Source: Escherichia coli (GTDB taxonomy: Bacteria; Pseudomonadota; Gammaproteobacteria; Enterobacterales; Enterobacteriaceae). Taken from it: 19,728 bases of DNA. The stretch lies in NCBI RefSeq assembly GCF_003334255.1, contig NZ_QOWU01000070.1. One strand, written 5' to 3'. Shown here piece after piece: positions 545 through 11,756 of this stretch. Position numbers and translations under genes: made by a program. Below the pieces are notes generated by a model. That model saw only the letters and a list, made by a program, of their open reading frames with translations. It ran no database searches and was not told where the DNA came from. Within the stretch, counting starts at the first letter, position 1. Every line of letters starts with the position of its first letter.

Positions 545-3256
545 CTACATTCCAGGTGATGGTGGCGTCCACTCATTATCCTGAACTGGAGTATAAGATG
601 TGTCATTCCCCCCGGATATGCTTTTCTGTTGCCTGATATATTCGTGGTAGTACTGTTCACTACGCTGACGATGTAAATCCACATCCGGGCGGCTGATTAC
701 AAAGTGTCCATTTCCGGTTATTCCAGCTGCATTATGCCAGGCCACCATTTCCGCAAATACATCATTAAACTGTTGATATGAGCCTTCCGGTTCAAAACCC
801 ATTCCAGGCTCACGATCAAACAATACAGGAGCAATCAGATTCAGCTTATCCACCAGTTCATTTCTGTCCTGATGATGGTAGAACACCACACGGTCCCCAT
901 AATCCACACAGACTAACTCGCCATTCCTCCGATCACGAAAACGCACACTGCCATCTTTCTGCAGACGGGCTTCGAGAACGCCAGTGTCTTCATAAAGTGG
1001 AGTTCCTCCCGGTTCACAGATAATCACGCAGCGGTCGGCATTCGTTGTTCGTCGCTTGTCTTTGCGACGATCACGATAATCCCAGCCACGTAACTGTGAT
1101 ACTGCAGCTCTGTCTCCCTGTACCGCCTGTTGCTCCACCCACTGCCGGTAGGACAAAGGATACCACTTACCCTCCGCAATCAGTGACAACCGCTCTTCCT
1201 TCACACTCTCCTTCAGCCTGATCAGCGCCTGCATACGCTGCACTTCCGCAATATGGTAATGCAGCTTACGCAATTGTGGATCCCGGAACTGCACGCGGAT
1301 ATACGCCTTGCGCCGACGGCAGGCAGCATGAATTTCCCGTAACCGTTCTCCGTAACGTAAGTCGGGTTTACGCCAGTGCTCCTTCCATGCAAGATAACGC
1401 GCGCGCAAATCTTCCCGCGCAGCTGCACGGGCTTCACGGCGTTCACGACGCAGTACAGGATCGCGCCGGAAGCCGGGCTCCACTTCATCGCTGGCAGCAA
1501 GTTCCGGATTGTAGCGACATTCAGGCTTCACCCGTTCAAATATATCTGCACCTGCGATCTCAAATGGCCCTGCCTGCGGCTCAGCCCTGGATAATGTCAA
1601 ATCCGGGTGGATACTGCTGGCCTTCACTGGTGTCAGCTCATGATTAAACGCATCCACAATCACAAGACCATGATGCTGTTTCTGCAACATAAGCCCTTTA
1701 CGCGCAAACATCTCATGGCACGCCTGCCAGCTGAAATTCCCGCCCGCGATCATATCTTCAATCAACGACTCACACTGAACAGTCGTGTACCCCCACAGAC
1801 TTTCCTTATCAGAAAACAGTTCGCGCTTTATTGCTCCCTGTGGACCTGTCCCCATCCGCATACGATACCATTCGTAATCACTGACAGCCCGGGTACCGGT
1901 ACTGTGCCCCCGGAATCGTTCTCCGGGGACGACCTGGGTAAAAATATCCTTCGGTACAGGCTGCCATCCGCCTTCCTGATCCTGCATGTAATCCAGCGTC
2001 ATTAACGGCCACACACTGTCTGCACGTACTGGTGTCTGTTGTTTATCAAATCCATCATGCAGTACCAGATGCCCGTGCTGGATCCCCATCCATAATCCAG
2101 CCTTTGCCAGAGTTCTGTGCACATCCAGGCAACTTTCCAGCTCACCATTTCTCGCCATTTCCGGTAAGCGTTCGGCAAAATGACGGCAGGCGTACTGTTT
2201 CAGACTCTCCGTTTCTGCCACTTTTTCCGGCCGGATATCAACGTTTATCGCTTCCGGATCATAACGACCGGGTGTCCCCACCTGACTGAAAATATCTGTC
2301 GGTACAGGCTGATATTCTCCCAGTTTCCGCCCCAGTCTTTCAGCCGTCCATGACGGGCCGAACGAACTGAGCACAACACCTTCCCGCGATCTGTCCCAGC
2401 CATCCTTCACCACCAGTTCTCCCTCCTGCATCGTGATATACAGACCATCACGGGCCAGCCGTTTATGCAAAGACAACCAGTCCTGGGCGGGTTCTTCACG
2501 CAGCCCGGCAATCGACATCTGCGCAATATATTCCCTGAAGGTCTGCTTTTTCCCGCGTCGCCAGGCATTACGGCGCTCACGTACCAGCGCTGTTTTACGC
2601 ACAATACGGTTGCCCGGTGCATGCACAAAACACCCGTTATCCGGTGCAAATCCGTGCTTAAGTTCAAGTTCACGGCATGCACGACTGAGTTTTTCCTTGC
2701 TCCACGGAAGGCAATTGATATAGCCGGTTTCAGGATGAACACGATTCACTGCAACATGTACATGCAGGTTATCGGTGTCTGTATGAACGGCAGCTACATA
2801 CTGATGTTTTGAAAGTTCAAGGGATTTCAGTGTGTGACGTACGCAGTCAAAAAGCTGCTCAGGACGCGGGCTTTCATGCGCAGGCCAGGAAAGAATGTAG
2901 TGAAAAACAGGGTCTGTATCATCTTTGGAAAAATGAGCAAGGTCTGCTGCTTTCTGCATTTCTTCAGCCGCAGATTCAAGAGACAAACAGTTATGAAAGC
3001 AGGTCACACCATAGAAATTCACCCACTGACTGCCGTCTTCCATTACATCAATCAGGGATACAAATTTTTCGTTACGCAGGCGTGTGGCATAGTCAACAAG
3101 CCGTCTGAAGCGGTTACGGTGCGGGACCTCACCTTTCATTTCCGGGTCTGGTTTGAGTTCATCATCCTGCACATCATCCCGCACAGACGTGTACGCAATC
3201 AGGTCTTCAAAGGAAGACCTTCCGTCACGTCTTTTGGGCGGAATGATAGCATTCAT
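545..3256 (-). CDS. nikB: MOBP-family conjugative relaxase (NikB-like), 903 aa
   Basis: Relaxase histidine motif HTDTDNLHVHVAVNRVHPETG (HxDxxxxHxH type). Size and N-terminus (MNAIIPPKRRDGRSSFEDL) fit my memory of IncI1 R64 NikB (~900 aa). Lies directly downstream of a nikA-like gene and oriT. Confidence 0.88.
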   Translation of the reverse strand: MNAIIPPKRRDGRSSFEDLIAYTSVRDDVQDDELKPDPEMKGEVPHRNRFRRLVDYATRLRNEKFVSLIDVMEDGSQWVNFYGVTCFHNCLSLESAAEEMQKAADLAHFSKDDTDPVFHYILSWPAHESPRPEQLFDCVRHTLKSLELSKHQYVAAVHTDTDNLHVHVAVNRVHPETGYINCLPWSKEKLSRACRELELKHGFAPDNGCFVHAPGNRIVRKTALVRERRNAWRRGKKQTFREYIAQMSIAGLREEPAQDWLSLHKRLARDGLYITMQEGELVVKDGWDRSREGVVLSSFGPSWTAERLGRKLGEYQPVPTDIFSQVGTPGRYDPEAINVDIRPEKVAETESLKQYACRHFAERLPEMARNGELESCLDVHRTLAKAGLWMGIQHGHLVLHDGFDKQQTPVRADSVWPLMTLDYMQDQEGGWQPVPKDIFTQVVPGERFRGHSTGTRAVSDYEWYRMRMGTGPQGAIKRELFSDKESLWGYTTVQCESLIEDMIAGGNFSWQACHEMFARKGLMLQKQHHGLVIVDAFNHELTPVKASSIHPDLTLSRAEPQAGPFEIAGADIFERVKPECRYNPELAASDEVEPGFRRDPVLRRERREARAAAREDLRARYLAWKEHWRKPDLRYGERLREIHAACRRRKAYIRVQFRDPQLRKLHYHIAEVQRMQALIRLKESVKEERLSLIAEGKWYPLSYRQWVEQQAVQGDRAAVSQLRGWDYRDRRKDKRRTTNADRCVIICEPGGTPLYEDTGVLEARLQKDGSVRFRDRRNGELVCVDYGDRVVFYHHQDRNELVDKLNLIAPVLFDREPGMGFEPEGSYQQFNDVFAEMVAWHNAAGITGNGHFVISRPDVDLHRQRSEQYYHEYIRQQKSISGGNDTSYTPVQDNEWTPPSPGM

Positions 3257-3267
3257 CAGCGACTGTC

Positions 3268-3600
3268 TCAGCGTCCCATTAAGTCTCTTCGCAGAGTGTT
3301 TGCAAGTTCTGTAATGGCAACGAGGACCTCTGCATACTCTTTATCTCCCGTGCGTTTTCCTTCCACAAACAGATGCTTCTGCAGGTGACCAAGACGCATC
3401 AACTCTTTCAAAAAATCTTCATCAATGCGGGCATTTATCTGTTTTCCCAGCACAGTTTTTCTTATCAGAGTTGAAACTGTCAGTCCGTTTTTTTCTGCCT
3501 TTTCTTTAACAATCTCAGCCTCTTCTGGTGAAAAACGAACAGCAATGAGGACATTCTTTTGCCGTTTCTCACTGCCATTTCGGTTTTTCTTCTCACTCAT
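3268..3600 (-). CDS. nikA: Relaxosome accessory protein NikA (ribbon-helix-helix oriT-binding), 110 aa
   Basis: 110-aa product starting MSEKKNRNGSEKRQ with SD AAGGAG 6 nt upstream of the ATG at 3598-3600; the longer 139-aa ORF in the track would overlap the oriT repeat. Small basic protein immediately upstream of the relaxase, the R64 nikA-nikB arrangement. Confidence 0.85.
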   Translation of the reverse strand: MSEKKNRNGSEKRQKNVLIAVRFSPEEAEIVKEKAEKNGLTVSTLIRKTVLGKQINARIDEDFLKELMRLGHLQKHLFVEGKRTGDKEYAEVLVAITELANTLRRDLMGR

Positions 3601-3641
3601 GGTCTGCTCCTTACCAGGGTGTCGGGGCAAAGCCCTGACCA

Positions 3642-3700
3642 GGTGGTAATCGTATAGCCGTGCGTGCGCGGTTATACGATTACACATCCTGTCCCGTTTT
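3642..3700 (+). other. oriT: oriT: inverted repeat (arms 3646-3656 / 3673-3683) followed by nick-core-like ACATCCTG TCCCG
   Basis: 11-bp inverted repeat GTAATCGTATA / TATACGATTAC, then 8 bp later ATCCTG (3686-3691) resembling the MOBP nic core (RP4 ATCCTG|C); sits between nikA and the leading region. Nick position 3691|3692 is inferred by analogy only. Confidence 0.6.
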
Positions 3701-4253: not shown

Positions 4254-5102
4254 TCAGACTCGTGGCGGCAATGCACCAGGATAATGACGTGCAATAATAT
4301 CATTCAGTTTTTCAACAAGGTCAGGACACTTAAAGACAATATGTACGGTCCCTTTCTGGTAGCCACGCACCGTAAAATATTCCCCTTCAAACAACTCACC
4401 GATATTGTCGCCGTTCCCGAGATATTCACCATACTGCGCCCCGATGCTGTTCCTGAAGTCAGGAACGTTGCGTCCCTCCAGCAGATAAAACGGACGTACC
4501 AGGTCATCCAGTGCCTCCCGTCCGCTGCAGTCCAGCGTCACACGCCCGTTACTCCAGCGGTACAGCAGGTTTTCAATAATGATTTTCTTGCCCAGACGGC
4601 AGGGATTATTGGTTCTGTAATCCCATGACAATTTCCGGTAGACATCAATCAGTCCCTGTTCAAATGTCTGCATCTTGCTGGCATTCAGATGGCGAAAAGT
4701 TGCCAGTACATTGTCCAGGGTGATTTCAGGACAGGTGTCGCTCATCAGCTGGCTGTTCCACTCATCACGCTGGCATGAACTCATGAAGGTGTACATCCCC
4801 GTATCCGCCATCAGGCGGTCCCAGATTTTACGGTCGGCAAGACGGGTGATATTCTTTTTTGCTTCTTCCGGTTTATCCATGCATCGAACGGAGTCAGTCA
4901 CGCAGTCTTCAAACCCGTAGAGAAAAATGTCACCAGAAGCATCGAGCAGAATCCTGCGTGCTGTCGCCAGGCATTCCATCGCCTGCATGAACAGTGCAAT
5001 ACCTTCGTTACGCTGCGCGATAATGCGGTCGATGGCCACAGACGGAATAATATCTGTCGTGCCGGCAGTATTCAGGTCAGCAGTGGGTAAAGTCTGATTC
5101 AT
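4254..5102 (-). CDS. Hypothetical protein, first gene of the leading region (possibly DUF4942-like), 282 aa
   Basis: Long ORF; ATG at 5100-5102 with SD GAGGAG 8 nt upstream (the track start is a GTG one codon earlier). No methyltransferase, HExxH or nuclease motif seen by eye. The family assignment is from memory and weak. Confidence 0.75.
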   Translation of the reverse strand: MNQTLPTADLNTAGTTDIIPSVAIDRIIAQRNEGIALFMQAMECLATARRILLDASGDIFLYGFEDCVTDSVRCMDKPEEAKKNITRLADRKIWDRLMADTGMYTFMSSCQRDEWNSQLMSDTCPEITLDNVLATFRHLNASKMQTFEQGLIDVYRKLSWDYRTNNPCRLGKKIIIENLLYRWSNGRVTLDCSGREALDDLVRPFYLLEGRNVPDFRNSIGAQYGEYLGNGDNIGELFEGEYFTVRGYQKGTVHIVFKCPDLVEKLNDIIARHYPGALPPRV

Positions 5103-6184: not shown

Positions 6185-7147
6185 TCAGTAAGTGATTTTC
6201 TTCAGTTCGTCATCGGAAAGTCCGGTAGCCTGCTTAATCTGCTCCGGCGTCATCCCCATTTTCTGAAGCTGGCACGCAATAGCCAGGGCTTTTTCAAGCG
6301 CTCCTTCCATGCGTCCTTCCATGCGTCCTTCCATGCGTCCTTCCATCCTGCCTTCCTGGCGACCTTTTTGCTCAAGACGTTCTGCGATAGTCATCAGTTT
6401 ATCCTCATGCTGCGGCAGACGCTCAGCCAGCGCCCGCATAAATTCCGGTGATACAGAGTCCCCTGCGTTAACGATGTAATGAATCAGAACACGCACCTGC
6501 TCGTCTGAAATTTCCACCATGACCTGCGGGAGTTTGTCCAGCAGCTCCATCATGTCACGATGGCGGATATGCTTCATCAGCAGCGTCAGTGCGGCCATCC
6601 GGCGATGGTTCATGATTTCATTGTCATCAACGACAGTGATATCAACCAGCGGAAACGGCTTTGTGTATATTTTAGCCGCAAGTGCCGGATTCTCAAAACA
6701 GTCCAGCCAGTTCATGCTGTACGGGTACGGGCTGCGCTCACCGTGATAGAACAGCACCGGAATCACCAGTGGCAACGTTTTGTGCTGCTCCAGATGTCTC
6801 TGCATCGCCGCCACACTGTAGCGTAACATGCGAAAAGGCATGTACAGATTTTCTGTGCTCTGGTGCTCGATGAGCGTATAAACATAGCCGTCTTCACCCC
6901 CGGTGGTTTTCACGCTCCAGAGGATATCGCTGGCGTACTGATGCAGGTCCGGCTCTACAAAGGTGGCGGGTTCCAGCTTCAGCGTGGACAGGTCGCACAA
7001 CTGCCGGTACTCCGCCGGAAGATGCAGTTCCAGAAAATCTCTGGCGACGTCGGGATTCGCCAGGAACGACCGGAACGCGGCATCATGCGGCGTGGGCGTT
7101 GTGGTGGTTTTCTTCTTACTCACTTTCCCTCCATGAGTTATTATCAC
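6185..7147 (-). CDS. Rpn-family (YhgA-like, PD-(D/E)XK) recombination-promoting nuclease with internal RpnS-like start
   Basis: N-terminus TPHDAAFRSFLANPDVARDFLELHLPAEYRQLCDLSTLKLE and the core ASDILWSV ... YVYTLIEHQS closely parallel E. coli RpnA as I recall it. C-terminal repeat linker and tail are present; an internal ATG at 6392-6394 with SD GAGGA would give a 69-aa C-terminal product. True start may be the GTG at 7121-7123 (SD GGAGGG). Confidence 0.8.
   Translation of the reverse strand: MIITHGGKVSKKKTTTTPTPHDAAFRSFLANPDVARDFLELHLPAEYRQLCDLSTLKLEPATFVEPDLHQYASDILWSVKTTGGEDGYVYTLIEHQSTENLYMPFRMLRYSVAAMQRHLEQHKTLPLVIPVLFYHGERSPYPYSMNWLDCFENPALAAKIYTKPFPLVDITVVDDNEIMNHRRMAALTLLMKHIRHRDMMELLDKLPQVMVEISDEQVRVLIHYIVNAGDSVSPEFMRALAERLPQHEDKLMTIAERLEQKGRQEGRMEGRMEGRMEGRMEGALEKALAIACQLQKMGMTPEQIKQATGLSDDELKKITY
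6302..6349 (-). repeat. In-frame 12-bp tandem repeat (3 perfect + 1 variant unit) encoding (EGRM)n in the Rpn linker
   Basis: Plus-strand unit TCCTTCCATGCG repeated head-to-tail; translates on the minus strand to RMEG repeats (QEGRMEGRMEGRMEGRMEG). Confidence 0.9.
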
Positions 7148-7204
7148 CGGAATTATACGCCCGTGCGGTACGCACCTGCCACGGGCAGAAAGAAGGGAAC
7201 AGAT

Positions 7205-7534
7205 TTACAGTCGTGTATACAGCCCGGTATCCCGGGTAAAAAGCCACTGCAGCTGATCGCAATAAATCCCCTCGTGCTCCGATATCTGCGCTATCCGGGA
7301 ACCCTGTTTGCTGTAAAACGTCACCGTGTAATCATCGGCAAACGTTAATTTGATCCGGACAATATTAATATTATTTTTCGCAAAATATGACGGTAACTGA
7401 AAGCATAAACCGCATTCACCATTATCATCAAAATAAGCCAGATTTTTAGCGCCGGTCATAACAACAAATCGCTGGCTCCCCAGCTGTCCGAGAATTGTTT
7501 GAGCGACATGTTCAGCATAACTCATATTCTTCAT
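7205..7534 (-). CDS. Hypothetical protein, 109 aa
   Basis: ORF in an AT-rich block behind structured element copy 2; weak SD; no recognisable motif. Confidence 0.6.
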   Translation of the reverse strand: MKNMSYAEHVAQTILGQLGSQRFVVMTGAKNLAYFDDNGECGLCFQLPSYFAKNNINIVRIKLTFADDYTVTFYSKQGSRIAQISEHEGIYCDQLQWLFTRDTGLYTRL

Positions 7535-7600
7535 TCTAATATCCTGACGAGAGATATGCCGCAGGAGACACGACTACCTGCGACACTGATAATTGGGGAC

Positions 7601-7918
7601 TCAAGTTCTGTTACGCACAACTGCAAAGAGATATTTTTTCTGGCTTATAACTTTGCATTTTATTAAACGGGCTATTTCCCTGTAGTCTTTATTAAGAGGA
7701 ATATGAATCATGTCCCCGTTCAGTTCATTAAAAACGCACCCTTTTATATATAACGTCTCATTCATGATAAAACCATACATTGAAAAATGCTGATTTTCAT
7801 ACTCTTTACTGATTAAGTGAAAATATCCCTCCAGCAGTTCCTGCGGGGGATGTGGATCAATCATCCAGTTATCACCAATATATGAACATACTTCTGTTAT
7901 CGTTGTCTGAAATGTCAT
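7601..7918 (-). CDS. Hypothetical protein, 105 aa
   Basis: ORF with SD GGGGG 5 nt upstream of the ATG; strongly AT-rich relative to neighbours; no recognisable motif. Confidence 0.65.
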   Translation of the reverse strand: MTFQTTITEVCSYIGDNWMIDPHPPQELLEGYFHLISKEYENQHFSMYGFIMNETLYIKGCVFNELNGDMIHIPLNKDYREIARLIKCKVISQKKYLFAVVRNRT

Positions 7919-7975
7919 GTTACCCCCTGAAGTAAAAACTTATGATGTGAAATGGGGCGTTTCCGCCCCCTGGTA

Positions 7976-8110
7976 TCACATGGCGTAGCCTCTGAGGTGG
8001 TCCAGCCACCAACAGAACTCGTGCCATTCGTCGCCTTTCATTGGCGGAATGCGTGTGGGTTGTCCTTTGACAACCGCATCAGCAAGGGTTACGATTTGTC
8101 TGAGTGACAT
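7976..8110 (-). CDS. Hypothetical small protein, 44 aa (MSLRQIVTLADAVVKGQPTRIPPMKGDEWHEFCWWLDHLRGYAM)
   Basis: ATG at 8108-8110 preceded by AAGGAT; the longer 75-aa ORF in the track would read through the upstream GC hairpin motif. First gene downstream of structured element copy 2. Confidence 0.5.
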   Translation of the reverse strand: MSLRQIVTLADAVVKGQPTRIPPMKGDEWHEFCWWLDHLRGYAM

Positions 8111-8316
8111 AATCAATATCCTTACAAAGGTTGTTGATATCCGTGCAAAGGGGTGTTCCCGCCCCCCTGGCACACCCACTAACCTCCTTTTCCTTCCCGG
8201 CATTCCCTCACGCTGTGCGTGATTTACATCGTTCTCACCTCCTTCACTGGGTTGTTTCTGTTCGCTAAAAAATGGTCAGGTTGTTAAAGAGCGGCACGGT
8301 ATGTTCAGGCATCTTC

Positions 8317-8626
8317 ACAGGAGCGAAGCTCCTTCTGCCGTCCACTTCTTCGGGGTTTCTCCCGCTGTGGACCTTTCCGATGGGGGCCCGTTTACCGCCT
8401 CACGGGACAGCTGTCCGGGGGCGGACGCAAAATTTTTAGCCGGGTTCATGGCTAAAAATTTTGTGGCCGGTGCATCTCACCCTGGACAGATGGAACGGGA
8501 GGGGGTTACGTCTGCCCCCCGGAAAGTCCACAGCGGGAAACAGGCCGCAGGGGTGGCGGCAGGAGGGAGGACTGCTGCGCCATCAGGCGCAGTTTCCTCA
8601 CACACCGTCAGGTGTGCAGGGAGCGC
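8317..8626 (+). promoter_or_regulatory. Structured GC-rich element resembling a single-stranded-DNA promoter (Frpo/ssi type), copy 2
   Basis: Shares blocks with copy 1 (GGAGCGAAGCTCCTTCTGCCGTCC, GTGGACCTTTCCGA, GTCCGGGGGC-GACGCAAAA, CCCGGAAAGTCC, CTGCGCCATCAGGCGCAGT, ACACACCGTCAGGTGTGCAGGGAGCGC). Contains a perfect 14-bp hairpin CAAAATTTTTAGCC / GGCTAAAAATTTTG (8428-8463). Confidence 0.6.
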
Positions 8627-9015
8627 AGGTCACGGCGCGACAGGGGCGGCGCGACCGGAACGGTCGCTGCAAGCCGGGTTTTCACGCATCGGACCGTAGC
8701 GGCAGCCCGAAACCGCGCCAGCGGGTTCGGCGGAGACTGGCGGGTGCGCCAGCAGCTGCCCGTCGGAGTCGGGCCTGACGACCGGATGCCGCCAGGCAGC
8801 CGGGAGCCGAAGTGGGCGCAATAAAAGACAGCCAGAAACGGTGACAGTGTCACGGAATATCACTCCTGTTCCCTGCATACAGCCATACACTACCTTCTGA
8901 CCGGAAAGCCGGGCCGGCAGCGCCGCAGGCGCTGCACCCCGCGTTTCCGGCAGGCGTCAGCCTGCCTGGGGTTTTCGCGCGGGCTGACAGGCGGCCTCCA
9001 CCGCCTGCCCCTGTA

Positions 9016-9207
9016 TCACCTGTTTCTGCTGCCCTGAAGGATGTAGTGACCGCCCAGGAAAACCGCCTGCTGATTCGCCACAAAATCGCAGATTTCATCA
9101 ACAATCTGCGCGGTGGTGAGCGGTTTCTGCCCCATTTCACGACGCCGCGCATTAATCACGGCCCTGTAATTACGCAGAATTTCGCGGGTTTCTGTGCTGA
9201 TATTCAT
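9016..9207 (-). CDS. Hypothetical small protein, 63 aa, translationally coupled to the upstream gene
   Basis: ATG overlaps the stop of the 9204-9626 gene (ATGA). Confidence 0.6.
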   Translation of the reverse strand: MNISTETREILRNYRAVINARRREMGQKPLTTAQIVDEICDFVANQQAVFLGGHYILQGSRNR

Positions 9208-9626
9208 GACATCGTCTCCCCGTCCAGCGCCTGTAACACAACGTCCATTGCTTCGCGTTCCTCCCTGACGAATGCGTCACCGTCGCCCCCGTTCTCACTC
9301 CCGACGGCATACAGGCGCTTCATTTCACTGCCTGCCAGCGCCATCACTTTTTCCAGCATCACCGCCGGGACTGTCACATGACGGCTGGCGCGCTTTTCTT
9401 CCATCAGTTCACGAACAACGTCGTGAACAACGCTGACATCCGCACCATGCTCAAAGGCATCGTCCAGTCGCTGCATGACGGTTTCCAGCTCATCGTCTGA
9501 CAGGTTCCAGTCCTGGGCTATGTGACGCACATCCCCACGGGTCAGCACCACGGCAAAAACGCATTCACTGTCCGGCACGTCTGTATCCAGTACATCGCGG
9601 ATGATTTCTTTAACAGTACAGTACAT
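9204..9626 (-). CDS. Acidic hypothetical protein, 140 aa (possibly DUF1380-like, a family often next to ArdB/KlcA genes)
   Basis: ATG with SD AAGGAGACG; acidic composition; family name from memory only. Confidence 0.65.
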   Translation of the reverse strand: MYCTVKEIIRDVLDTDVPDSECVFAVVLTRGDVRHIAQDWNLSDDELETVMQRLDDAFEHGADVSVVHDVVRELMEEKRASRHVTVPAVMLEKVMALAGSEMKRLYAVGSENGGDGDAFVREEREAMDVVLQALDGETMS

Positions 9627-9672
9627 GTTCTCGTCTCCTTTACAGGGGCGGCATTGCCGCCCCGTCCGTTAA

Positions 9673-10098
9673 TCAGTCAAGTGCAGCGTAAATCGCGTTG
9701 CATTCGGGGTGAAATTCGATGTGGCTCCACAACTGCGCATCGCGCATCCTGTACAGGTGTGTCAACCCTGCATCCCCGCTGTCGTGGTACAGCCACAACT
9801 GGCGGTTAATCACAAGGGAAGTCAAAATGATGCCTGCGGCATCAGCACTCACGGTACGGTCAAACCAGTTTTCACCGTTGACCAGATGAAAACGGTCGCC
9901 ATCCGGCATCATGTAACCGCCACCGTCCGGCAGGCGGATGAAGTGCCAGAATCCGCCTTCATATTCCGGCATCATTTTTTTCGCCAGCGCGTATACAGAC
10001 GCTTCGGCATACAGAAAATCCAGGCCAAACAGGTAAGGCAGAAAAGACAGACGGTCGCACTCTTCAACGTTCAGAGTGACAGGTTTCGCATACTGCAT
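9673..10098 (-). CDS. ArdB/KlcA-family antirestriction-like protein, 141 aa
   Basis: Start MQYAKPVTL with SD GGAGG 6 nt upstream (the track ORF begins earlier at 10179). Motifs FLPYLFG, EGGFWHFIRLPDGGGYMMPDGD and SADAAGIILT match my recollection of the KlcA/ArdB/YfjX family. Confidence 0.7.
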   Translation of the reverse strand: MQYAKPVTLNVEECDRLSFLPYLFGLDFLYAEASVYALAKKMMPEYEGGFWHFIRLPDGGGYMMPDGDRFHLVNGENWFDRTVSADAAGIILTSLVINRQLWLYHDSGDAGLTHLYRMRDAQLWSHIEFHPECNAIYAALD

Positions 10099-10140
10099 GG
10101 GATTTCCTCCGTTGTTCACATATTCCGCGACACCGGGCGG

Positions 10141-10364
10141 TGCCGTGCCTCCATCTTTGCCGGGCCTGCAGGGTTGCAAGGGCGCAAGGGAAGCCGCAGC
10201 CTGACGCGCACGGCTGACGGGAGTTGGAGGGTGAGACCGCGAAATCTGAGCGGGTGAACGACCGGAAAATCACGGCAGACGGGAAGGAGGGACCGGGTGA
10301 CCGCAGCGGTTCACCTTACCTTGCAACCCGCCCGCAGAAGCCCGGCTACGATGGAGGCACGGCA
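10141..10364 (+). promoter_or_regulatory. Long imperfect hairpin (about 225 bp) upstream of the klcA-like operon; possible third ssDNA promoter/ssi element
   Basis: Outer arms TGCCGTGCCTCCATC (10141-10155) and GATGGAGGCACGGCA (10350-10364) are exact reverse complements; inner arms GCCGGGC...GGTTGCAAGG / CCTTGCAACC...GCCCGGC also pair; nested palindromes CGGGTGAACGACCGG and GGTGACCGCAGCGGTTCACC. Confidence 0.5.
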
Positions 10365-10511
10365 CAGCCCGCACACGACGCTGAGGCCACATAACTGAAA
10401 ACCCACAAGGCCATGCCCCGCATGGCCGGGTAAAGCGGAGCCTGCGGCGACATCCTTTTGCTCTTTCCGGGGACCGGCTGGAAAAGGCGGAGATTTTCCC
10501 CGCCAGCGTCA

Positions 10512-10835
10512 TCATTTCCGGATTTTCGCCAGTGCATCCGCCATGCTGCGGATTTCAGTCCGGGCTTCCAGGACCACCTCCCGCAGAATATCCCGGTCAA
10601 ACCAGCGACGGGACGGTTCATCAGGTATACGCAGCACATCGCAGGCCAGCCCACTGGACAGGATATGCTCCACACACTCACTGACCAGATACATTTCCAC
10701 CGACGAAAAACGAGCGCCACGGTTCAGAATGGCATCGAGCACCACGGGCAGATTTTCGTCATCTTCATCAAGCCAGCAGGGGTAATCGCTTTCCTTCACA
10801 ACCAGACGAAAGCGGCGCGTCTGGCGGGTCAGCAA
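10512..10835 (-). CDS. Hypothetical acidic protein, up to 107 aa (start uncertain)
   Basis: ORF with TTG start in the track and no clear SD; contains the acidic stretch [12 protein letters not shown]; real start could be internal. Confidence 0.45.
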
Positions 10836-11114
10836 CGTCTGACCGGTGGTGGTCAGCGCCGCCCGGATACGCGGGCATCTTCTGCCACTTGGTAACAGAT
10901 GCTTCGTACTGCATTGCGCACTGCATCAAGAACTGCCCTGATTTCGTCTTCGGTCAGCCATTCTCCGGCATACGGGAAAAACACCTGTGTTCCGTCTGCC
11001 GGAAGTACCGGCAGCGACTGCCACTGACTGCCGGACAGTACCAGTTCCGCCCCGGTTCCGGTCAGTTTCTGAATGGCGGAGGCCAGGAGCGGCGGCAGTA
11101 CGCCGCCGTGACGG

Positions 11115-11756
11115 TTGATAAGTAACGTCCGGAAAAACTTCAGCGTCATTCTTGAGCGTACGGTACGCGAACTCAACGGCGAGTCCTGCATATCCCTGGA
11201 AGAAGCACCACCGGCAAAACAACAGATTGTCTGTAGTCGCAGTTTTGGTGAACGAATCACAGACAAAGATGCCATGCACCAGGCTGTTGTTCAGTATGCA
11301 GAGCGGGCCGCAGAGAAACTACGTGGGGAGCGTCAGTATTGCCGGCAGGTGACGACATTTGTACGGACATCCCCCTTTGCAGTAAAAGAACCCTGTTACA
11401 GCAATGCCGCTGTGGAAAAGCTTTCATTGCCCACACAGGACAGCCGGGACATTATTGCCGCCGCATGCAGAGCCTTAAACCATGTCTGGCGTGAAGGGTA
11501 CCGCTATATGAAGGCAGGAGTCATGCTGGCTGATTTCACTCCATCGGGTATAGCGCAGCCGGGATTATTTGATGAAATCCAGCCCCGTAAAAACAGTGAA
11601 AAGTTAATGAAAACACTCGATGAACTGAACCAGTCGGGAAAAGGGAAAGTGTGGTTTGCGGGGCGAGGAACCGCCCCTGAATGGCAAATGAAACAGGAAA
11701 TGCTATCGCCTTCGTATACAACACAATGGACTGAGATCCCCATTGCTTCATTCTGA
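11115..11756 (+). pseudogene. impB: impB/umuC/mucB-family error-prone polymerase gene, 3' half only
   Basis: [13 protein letters not shown] ... [11 protein letters not shown] ... TTFVRTSPFA ... PTQDSRDIIAAA ... YMKAGVMLADF ... LFDE ... WQMKQEMLSPSYTT aligns to the C-terminal ~210 residues of MucB/UmuC as I recall them. An in-frame TGA at 11109-11111 and non-homologous sequence upstream show the N-terminal half, and any impA/impC, are missing. Confidence 0.85.

Follow-up and report, generated by a model that had tools for sequence, protein, structure and literature searches.

A probable zygotically induced klcA/ardB anti-restriction operon with a DUF1380 gene in the leading region of an IncK2/Z plasmid of Escherichia coli

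What role is played by a tight cluster of three minus-strand genes, encoding an anti-restriction-like protein, an acidic protein and a small basic protein, on contig NZ_QOWU01000070.1 of Escherichia coli (RefSeq assembly GCF_003334255.1)? The window that we analysed is the whole stretch of 19,728 nucleotides (nt), and all coordinates and strands refer to it. We read the cluster as the zygotically induced klcA/ardB anti-restriction operon of an I-complex (IncK2/Z) leading region, and assign this reading a probability of about 0.8. The evidence observed directly consists of gene identities, orthology, conserved synteny, purifying selection, and the homology and covariation of an upstream hairpin. 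The operon is already known: records of thousands of plasmids annotate it, a 2024 leading-region survey lists it, and it has been transcriptionally mapped in plasmids pESBL and F and genetically probed in pMS7163B and F. Added here are the identification of the pMS7163B gene '910' as DUF1380/YubJ, evidence that klcA and DUF1380 have stayed paired over deep divergence, and a conserved intercistronic hairpin. The three genes are as follows.

9673-10098, minus strand: klcA/ardB (yubI, yfgB), encoding a KlcA/ArdB family anti-restriction protein of 141 residues
9204-9626, minus strand: the DUF1380 gene (yubJ, ycjA, pMS7163B_00910), encoding an acidic protein of 140 residues that is predicted to be all-helical
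9016-9207, minus strand: orf63 (pMS7163B_00900; 'plasmid protein', 'AreA' or YffA in some databases), encoding a basic protein of 63 residues

The initial annotation had placed three minus-strand open reading frames (ORFs) at these limits, and its coordinates are exact to the base. Its interpretation of them as one operon agrees with the RNA-seq and 5' rapid amplification of cDNA ends (5'RACE) published for the 94%-identical pESBL locus (PMC12672017). The klcA start is the ATG at 10098 with GGAGG 8 nt upstream, an AAGGAG ribosome-binding site precedes the DUF1380 ORF, and the ATG of orf63 shares 4 bp with the DUF1380 TGA (ATGA, 9204-9207), bearing out the overlap from which coupling of the last gene had been proposed. 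The genes thus lie on one strand, are joined by a 46-nt klcA-DUF1380 gap and a 4-bp overlap, have their own ribosome-binding sites, and keep their order in all loci, as expected of an operon. No internal intrinsic terminator was called, the only terminator-like matches lying inside coding sequence and at chance level (6 versus 3.6 +/- 2.2 expected). A 168-residue, TTG-initiated version of the klcA ORF (TTG at 10179) was rejected; because this extension enters the upstream hairpin and the homologues are all 141-143 residues long, we place the start at 10098. Ratios of nonsynonymous to synonymous substitution (dN/dS, Nei-Gojobori), computed against orthologues at 33-98% amino-acid identity, are 0.08-0.26 for klcA, 0.16-0.39 for DUF1380 and 0.09-0.31 for orf63, and at least 5000 PLSDB records carry positions 8800-10400 at 90% identity or more with full coverage, the block being annotated there as 'antirestriction protein', 'DUF1380 family protein' and 'hypothetical protein'. 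Because of the low dN/dS and the presence of the block in so many plasmid records, all three ORFs are genuine genes under purifying selection and not chance ORFs.

The product of the first gene was initially called KlcA-like, and this call is well founded. A hidden Markov model (HMM) search matches it to PF03230 (Antirestrict) with E=3.6e-26 over model positions 2-92 of 92; it matches PDB 2KMG (KlcA of pBP136) essentially at full length (residues 5-141, E=3.2e-18), albeit with only moderate identity, PDB 2WJ9 (ArdB of CFT073) with E=6e-9, and phrog_10132, an 'anti-restriction protein', with E=3e-20. It is 94% identical to the syntenic R64 protein, which the literature names ArdB, and 96% identical to ardB/klcA of pMS7163B. 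We therefore assign it by homology to the KlcA/ArdB family. The IncP klcA gene lies in the kilC operon (klcA-klcB-korC) under Kor repression, and is not known to be accompanied by a DUF1380 gene, a 63-residue gene or a single-stranded DNA (ssDNA) hairpin promoter. R64 ArdB and IncP-1 KlcA (2KMG, 2WJ9) belong to the same family and fold as the window protein, and are type I-specific and independent of the recognition site (PMC2836571, PMC10149784). Alleviation of type I restriction in vivo is published for R64 ArdB, CFT073 ArdB and pBP136 KlcA (PMC2836571, PMC10149784), and KlcA/ArdB proteins inhibit all four type I families in vivo (PMC2836571). EcoKI is not inhibited by them in vitro, ArdB action being reported as indirect (PMC2836571), and ArdB has no effect on BREX or type III systems (PMC10149784).

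The closest known systems share the whole arrangement. In F, R64, pESBL and pMS7163B the three genes recur at unchanged lengths and with the 4-bp overlap retained, and the window proteins are 94-97% identical to those of R64, pESBL and pMS7163B. In the IncI1 plasmid pESBL (NC_018659.1; PMC12672017) the genes are 426, 423 and 192 bp long; the window is collinear with it and 94% identical in DNA over 8292-11129, with an upstream hairpin that is 88% identical and has the same pairing, and with a class 1 ssi hairpin downstream. The F ssp2-yfgB (yubI) locus (NC_002483.1, 56755-57837) is also similar (KlcA 95%, DUF1380 97%, orf63 98%, hairpin 89% identical), although the F backbone is MOBF/MPF_F and that of the window MOBP/MPF_I. 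The closest relative to have been probed experimentally is pMS7163B (IncB/O/K/Z, NZ_CP026855.1; PMC10286972), whose three proteins are 96%, 96% and 97% identical to ours, with the same 46-nt gap and 4-bp overlap.

In the DNA upstream of klcA we note the following features.

10134-10371, plus strand (the T strand): an imperfect hairpin of 238 nt, directly upstream of klcA
10321-10326, plus strand: a tentative -35-like sequence, TTGCAA, on the non-template arm of the hairpin
10347-10352, plus strand: a tentative -10-like sequence, TACGAT (TAAGAT in pESBL and F), also on the non-template arm

Complementarity between its arms (10134-10165 and 10340-10371) is 91%, and the hairpin has a DNA folding energy of -79 kcal/mol (z=-4.0). 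It is 87.7% identical to the DNA upstream of pESBL klcA, 89.2% to that of F, and 87.4% to the DNA upstream of pESBL ardA. Across seven loci, two of them only 55% identical, 91% of the alignment cells are paired, and compensatory changes occur in 25 of the 72 hairpin pairs, compared with 8.6 +/- 2.0 in column shuffles (none of 500 reaching the observed number) and 2-5 in slid controls. A conserved internal loop (alignment columns 239-241) that is unpaired in all loci holds the first three bases of the -10-like sequence. The assignment of the two hexamers is tentative because their spacing is 20 nt on the non-template arm and 15 nt on the opposite arm. By its sequence and pairing, we take the hairpin to be a homologue of the 'class 2' ssDNA promoters of pESBL klcA and ardA, and of F ssp2. 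A gathering-threshold Rfam scan of the whole window gave no match; to our knowledge, ssDNA promoters are not included in Rfam.

In pESBL, six leading-region operons are reported to be induced up to ~500-fold in fresh transconjugants, and a large stem-loop precedes each; the klcA and ardA hairpins are alike, were named class 2 ssDNA promoters, had their transcription start sites mapped by 5'RACE, and are conserved in F (PMC12672017). The F ssp2 hairpin acts both as an ssDNA promoter and as a roadblock to the complementary strand: it drives yfgB, whose product is 93% identical to R64 ArdB, and it stalls complementary-strand synthesis at the end of its stem (bioRxiv 10.64898/2026.01.09.698686). 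Its deletion lowers transfer into recipients with restriction-modification (R-M) systems, 5-fold for EcoKI and 36-fold for EcoGIII (bioRxiv 10.64898/2026.01.09.698686).

The second protein is harder to place. The DUF1380 guess made for it initially gave a weak HMM match (PF07128, E=2.4e-4, score 21.6, model positions 1-102 of 137), and other evidence agrees with it: identical proteins are named 'DUF1380 family protein' by NCBI; it aligns over its full length, at 24% identity, with the PF07128-positive paralogues of pESBL and F, with which it has the motif R-x-V-T-V-P-A...LAG in common; and its AlphaFold2 (AF2) model (predicted local distance difference test score, pLDDT, 83) has six helices. 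In a Foldseek search of AFDB50, about 40 of the 50 matches listed are named DUF1380, the remainder bearing older gene names or other labels, and the DUF1380 matches listed extend down to 17-25% identity with TM scores of up to 0.71. Because of the end-to-end alignment with accepted members and the same predicted fold in Foldseek, we conclude that membership of DUF1380 is correct despite the weak Pfam score. The family is narrow, with only 131 clusters, mostly fragments, of DUF1380-like proteins found in an HMMER scan of 1.8 billion representative proteins. Two apparent fusions of KlcA and DUF1380 among the database matches (P0010, P0053) were judged to be gene-calling artefacts, as the 46-nt spacer contains a stop and shifts the frame.

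DUF1380 has an isoelectric point (pI) of 4.39, a net charge of -17 and 22% Asp+Glu. M1 and A98 are the only invariant residues, G61, R82 and L91 being almost so, no catalytic-looking residues are conserved in the alignment of its relatives, and a net charge of -14 to -17 is kept in klcA-linked orthologues down to 33% identity. Because it lacks conserved catalytic-looking residues and its acidity is conserved, the protein is regarded as a putative binding protein, non-enzymatic in function. It has no sequence match to any chain in a PDB search, and its predicted fold is similar to no solved structure, known DNA mimics included. A literature search on DUF1380 gave no searchable paper linking the family to this context. 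The Salmonella protein A0A602YF59 (393 residues, annotated as DUF3560) has an apparent DUF1380-like domain (Foldseek against AFDB50, E=1e-5, 32% identity), and this predicted domain fusion might hint at a function.

Genetic evidence comes from pMS7163B. Transposon-directed insertion-site sequencing (TraDIS) of transfer from an hsd- TOP10 donor into an EcoKI+ J53 recipient gave log2 fold changes (log2FC) of -3.41 for ardB/klcA, -2.35 for '910' (false discovery rate 2e-99) and +0.50 for '900', and ardB::Cm and 910::Cm lower transfer when the donor is hsd- TOP10 but not when it is MG1655 (PMC10286972). Transfer from hsd- donors into EcoKI+ recipients thus requires the ardB and '910' genes but not '900'; the authors left the function of '910' open, and drew no link to DUF1380/YubJ (PMC10286972). 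Comparison of the supplementary coordinates with the RefSeq record identifies '910' (81355-81777) as the DUF1380 gene and '900' (81167-81358) as the 63-residue gene, their products being 96% and 97% identical, respectively, to those of the window. The defect is seen only with the unmodified donor, ardB is located upstream of '910', and '900' insertions are neutral; read most simply, this means that EcoKI escape depends in part on the DUF1380 protein itself.

Several alternatives must be weighed against this. The '910' phenotype could be a cis or polar artefact, acting through transcript stability or through hairpin and replication dynamics, with the downstream genes unrelated to restriction and serving some other establishment function or forming a regulatory or toxin-antitoxin-like pair. 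The text of PMC10286972 yielded no '910' complementation, the same study records polar artefacts of the Cm cassette for ydcB, ssb and 950 (PMC10286972), an acidic protein followed by a small basic one with a 4-bp overlap is a layout also seen in toxin-antitoxin and regulator pairs, and toxin-antitoxin genes are enriched in leading regions (PMC11541004). We nevertheless consider this improbable. A defect seen only with the hsd- donor points to restriction and not to general transfer, the neutrality of '900' insertions shows that polarity on '900' is not the cause, and ardB lies upstream, followed by a putatively protective stem-loop; moreover, neither PADLOC nor NCBIfam yields a homologous family, and orf63 has been lost or relocated independently of DUF1380.

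If DUF1380 does contribute, it could do so as a stand-alone effector through direct binding to R-M enzymes, acidic DNA mimicry being one example, in parallel to KlcA/ArdB and perhaps against other R-M types. The initial annotation had raised such a DNA-mimic anti-restriction role: the role is supported by the published genetics of the 96%-identical '910' orthologue (PMC10286972), whereas the mimic mechanism is not, the protein being acidic but with a predicted fold unlike any known mimic. ArdA and Ocr resemble DUF1380 in being small, acidic, and leading-region or early-expressed proteins, and the 22% acidic fraction equals that of pESBL ArdA, but they have no sequence or predicted-structure similarity to it, and its net charge of -17 compares with -25 for ArdA. 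The computed net charge of Ocr is -28. Conservation of this charge in the klcA-linked orthologues, against -8 in a paralogue from a methylase operon, the lack of conserved catalytic-type residues, and the partial phenotype of '910' insertions that leave the upstream ardB intact all favour an effector. So does the 36-fold loss against EcoGIII, a type II system, on deletion of F ssp2: ArdB has no effect on BREX or type III systems (PMC10149784), and another product of the operon may be responsible. An effect of this size is not expected from ArdB alone, which keeps the idea of an independent effector alive. Charge is nevertheless weak evidence, since the window KlcA is itself acidic (net charge -9) and pBP136 KlcA was shown to be no DNA mimic (PMC2836571), and DUF1380 has no PDB sequence match to lend support. 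We regard direct action of this kind as rather unlikely.

DUF1380 could instead be a helper of KlcA/ArdB, whether stabiliser, chaperone or adaptor, that raises the efficacy of ArdB at the low transient levels made from the incoming strand. In all lineages examined it lies strictly next to klcA, with a conserved hairpin between the two genes; this is consistent with a helper, as are the shared donor-specific phenotype of ardB and '910' mutants, the dependence of ArdB/KlcA activity on expression level (Goryanin 2018, as cited in PMC11602122), and the indirect effect of ArdB on EcoKI, which was not reproduced in vitro (PMC2836571). However, the KlcA of IncP klcA-klcB-korC and the chromosomal CFT073 ArdB work without a DUF1380 neighbour when tested alone (PMC2836571), and the methyltransferase operon has a DUF1380 paralogue without ArdB. 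A helper function is, in our estimation, also on the unlikely side.

A broader proposal is that DUF1380/YubJ is an unrecognised anti-restriction family acting beside or through ArdB, perhaps beyond type I systems, and that its paralogue may do the same in the M.EcoGIX operon; protection beyond type I could explain the EcoGIII loss when the F ssp2 operon is silenced. This we offer tentatively, as possible but short of an even chance. The paralogue, 24% identical and less acidic, occupies an adjacent methyltransferase operon (methylase-YubE-DUF1380) at 5701-6135 of L004 (pESBL) and 6966-7520 of L005 (F), and is also found in loci L006, L009, L011 and L013, such that both anti-restriction operons of those leading regions carry a DUF1380 gene. 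The pMS7163B copy of the paralogue ('940') has a TraDIS log2FC of -1.67.

The klcA-DUF1380 pairing extends far beyond these plasmids. We examined the neighbours of divergent full-length DUF1380-like proteins from the HMMER scan on their contigs, and a PF03230 gene lies immediately 5' of the DUF1380 gene wherever upstream DNA exists. The pairing is seen at 63% (L006-8), 37% (L009/10), 38% (L011/12), 33% (L013/14) and 33% (L015) identity, and in L017 the pair is kept but split by an IS66 element. Judged by this divergence, the pair is old. The third gene is more variable: orf63 is present in L006 (63% identity) and L011 (47%, with the 4-bp overlap), contains an in-frame TGA in L009 (about 4460-4660) with the sequence still conserved past it, is absent in L013/14, and in L017 (4341-4532) lies 3' of ardA and not of DUF1380. 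In L006 and L017 the next gene after orf63 encodes a DNA polymerase III theta (HOT-like) protein. In a 2024 Nature survey of leading regions, KlcAHS/ArdB ranks ninth and YcjA/YcgC/YubJ/PF07128 fourteenth, and the sixth-ranked 'Plasmid protein/AreA/YffA' is assigned to orf63 by matching homologue names (PMC11541004). The families at ranks 14 and 6 are marked 'Uncharacterized' there, and all three lie on the T strand at median ORF positions 15-16 from oriT (PMC11541004).

The same loci preserve a structure between the first two genes.

9645-9663, minus strand: a GC-rich stem-loop, GGGGCGGC-AAT-GCCGCCCC, between the klcA stop and the DUF1380 ribosome-binding site

Its RNA folds at -18.4 kcal/mol, and a stem-loop occurs at the same position in pESBL, F, L006, L009, L011, L013 and L015; in L011 the stem sequence is changed (GGGCAG/CTGCCC) and the stem-loop kept. 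It was not called as an intrinsic terminator and, lacking a T-run after it, does not qualify as a classical one; through mRNA stability or pausing it may govern the ratio of KlcA to DUF1380.

Pfam, NCBIfam, PHROGs and PADLOC contain no family for the basic product of orf63 (pI 9.8), and a PDB profile search and Foldseek gave no significant relative (best E=0.067 and 1.7). A Pfam DUF7420 match (E=0.03) was rejected as noise. The AF2 model (pLDDT 71) has an arginine-rich helix at residues 5-24 and a second at 32-45, the conserved C-terminus not being confidently modelled. A ribbon-helix-helix fold, suggested by the sequence pattern, was dropped, as AF2 predicts two helices with no N-terminal strand and the structure searches were not significant. 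Some UniRef homologues (P0366, P0385) are labelled 'AreA'. With conservation at 47-63% identity in L006, L011 and L017 and the distribution described above, orf63 is a separable add-on to the klcA-DUF1380 pair.

These elements suggest the following sequence of events for the zygotically induced operon. During conjugation the window plus strand would enter the recipient first, as single-stranded DNA, and the hairpin at 10134-10371 would fold into a pseudo-duplex bearing the -35- and -10-like elements. Host RNA polymerase could then initiate on the single strand, such that klcA, DUF1380 and the 63-residue gene are transcribed before a complementary strand exists. KlcA/ArdB would block type I restriction enzymes whatever their recognition site, through a mechanism that is still undescribed and was first reported as indirect; DUF1380 would be a second, non-enzymatic component for full EcoKI escape; and the translationally coupled 63-residue basic protein would be an optional accessory. 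The hairpin promoter would be extinguished once the plasmid becomes double-stranded. Given its homology to F ssp2, the hairpin is also likely to delay synthesis of the complementary strand and thereby prolong expression.

A number of observations weigh against this reading or limit it. The ssDNA promoter activity, transcription start site, zygotic induction, ArdB activity and '910' phenotype are all published for loci that are 88-97% identical, and not for this plasmid; we infer that its variant behaves as they do. The stretch between the -35- and -10-like hexamers differs from those of pESBL and F, so the promoter strength of the window hairpin is not guaranteed. In pB10 and RIP113, loss of klcA or ardB by deletion made no detectable difference (PMC11602122). 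Cloned ArdB is sufficient alone in vivo (PMC2836571), so DUF1380 is not an obligatory partner, and we found no report of complementation of '910' in the TOP10-donor assay, the published mutants being transposon and cassette insertions (PMC10286972). The third gene is absent or pseudogenised in some lineages and neutral in TraDIS. Lastly, a search for an intrinsic terminator 3' of orf63 found none that would close the unit.

The surroundings of the operon accord with a position in a leading region. The replicon type is IncK2/Z, the best matches are IncK2/Z, MOBP, MPF_I plasmids of E. coli and Salmonella, and the following features flank the operon.

545-3256, minus strand: nikB
3268-3687, minus strand: nikA, which oriT adjoins
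8319-8812, plus strand: a predicted class 1 ssi/Frpo-type element, with its core hairpin at 8329-8569 (-107 kcal/mol, z=-12.9)

To the right of the nik genes are leading-region genes for DUF4942, an Rpn nuclease and small hypothetical proteins, and beyond ~11.1 kb half of an impB/umuC gene is followed by stability genes of the parM/parR type. The window is thus the leading region of an I-complex (IncK2/Z) conjugative plasmid. Because oriT lies beside nikA and the leading region runs rightward, established knowledge of MOBP/I-complex transfer indicates that the plus strand is the transferred T strand and the template for the minus-strand genes, in agreement with the published strand bias of leading regions (PMC11541004).

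The element at 8319-8812, ~490 nt long and starting ~200 nt downstream of orf63, is 90% and 81% identical to two other pESBL regions that lie upstream of leading-region genes, and on this basis we predict it to be an ssDNA promoter of the class 1 ssi/Frpo type. Its counterpart in pESBL, R64 and F precedes ssb; the window homology ends at 8292, 41 bp before the ssb start, and the promoter would now be either orphaned or driving the unrelated small ORFs at 7601-7918 and 7205-7534. A TTGACA-17-TACGAT sequence at 8067-8095 (plus strand), the only sigma-70-like match within 7900-11300, was considered as a second hairpin promoter and rejected, as it has no long inverted repeat and is a chance-level match.

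Flanking the operon in pESBL are the ssb-psiB-psiA-ardA block and the M.EcoGIX operon, both of which the window lacks, unlike pMS7163B, which keeps ssb, psiB, ardA and the methylase operon. At 7135-8291 the pESBL ssb-DUF905-parB-psiB-psiA-ardA block (~7.7 kb) is missing, with 1.16 kb encoding two hypothetical proteins of no family in its place. A deletion joint at 11128/11129 truncates a 258-residue leading-region ORF (pESBL 56181-56957), whose remnants are the ORFs at 10512-10835 and 10853-11275, and fuses it to the C-terminal half of impB/umuC (11115-11756, plus strand; NF002955, E=4e-118, positions 213-421), with loss of the genes for the M.EcoGIX methylase, YubE, the DUF1380 paralogue, DUF1281, dinI and umuD. 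At 8631-9002 (minus strand), pESBL and pMS7163B have a 123-residue 'hypothetical protein' annotated after orf63 where F annotates an opposite-strand ORF; the window frame is not intact, being broken into pieces of 86 and 81 residues, so the annotated ORF is probably not a gene.

With the ardA, psiB, ssb and methylase blocks absent, this leading region retains no recognised anti-restriction unit other than the klcA operon. The cluster is carried by thousands of resistance plasmids (IncF, IncI, IncB/O/K/Z), where it is among the first genes expressed in a new host, and the klcA-DUF1380 pairing is conserved far beyond the plasmids already studied. In the searchable literature the '910' phenotype has been tied neither to the DUF1380 family nor to the mode of action of ArdB. 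Knowledge of the operon itself is unchanged by the present analysis, but the link between '910' and DUF1380 offers a handle on how ArdB-type anti-restriction works.

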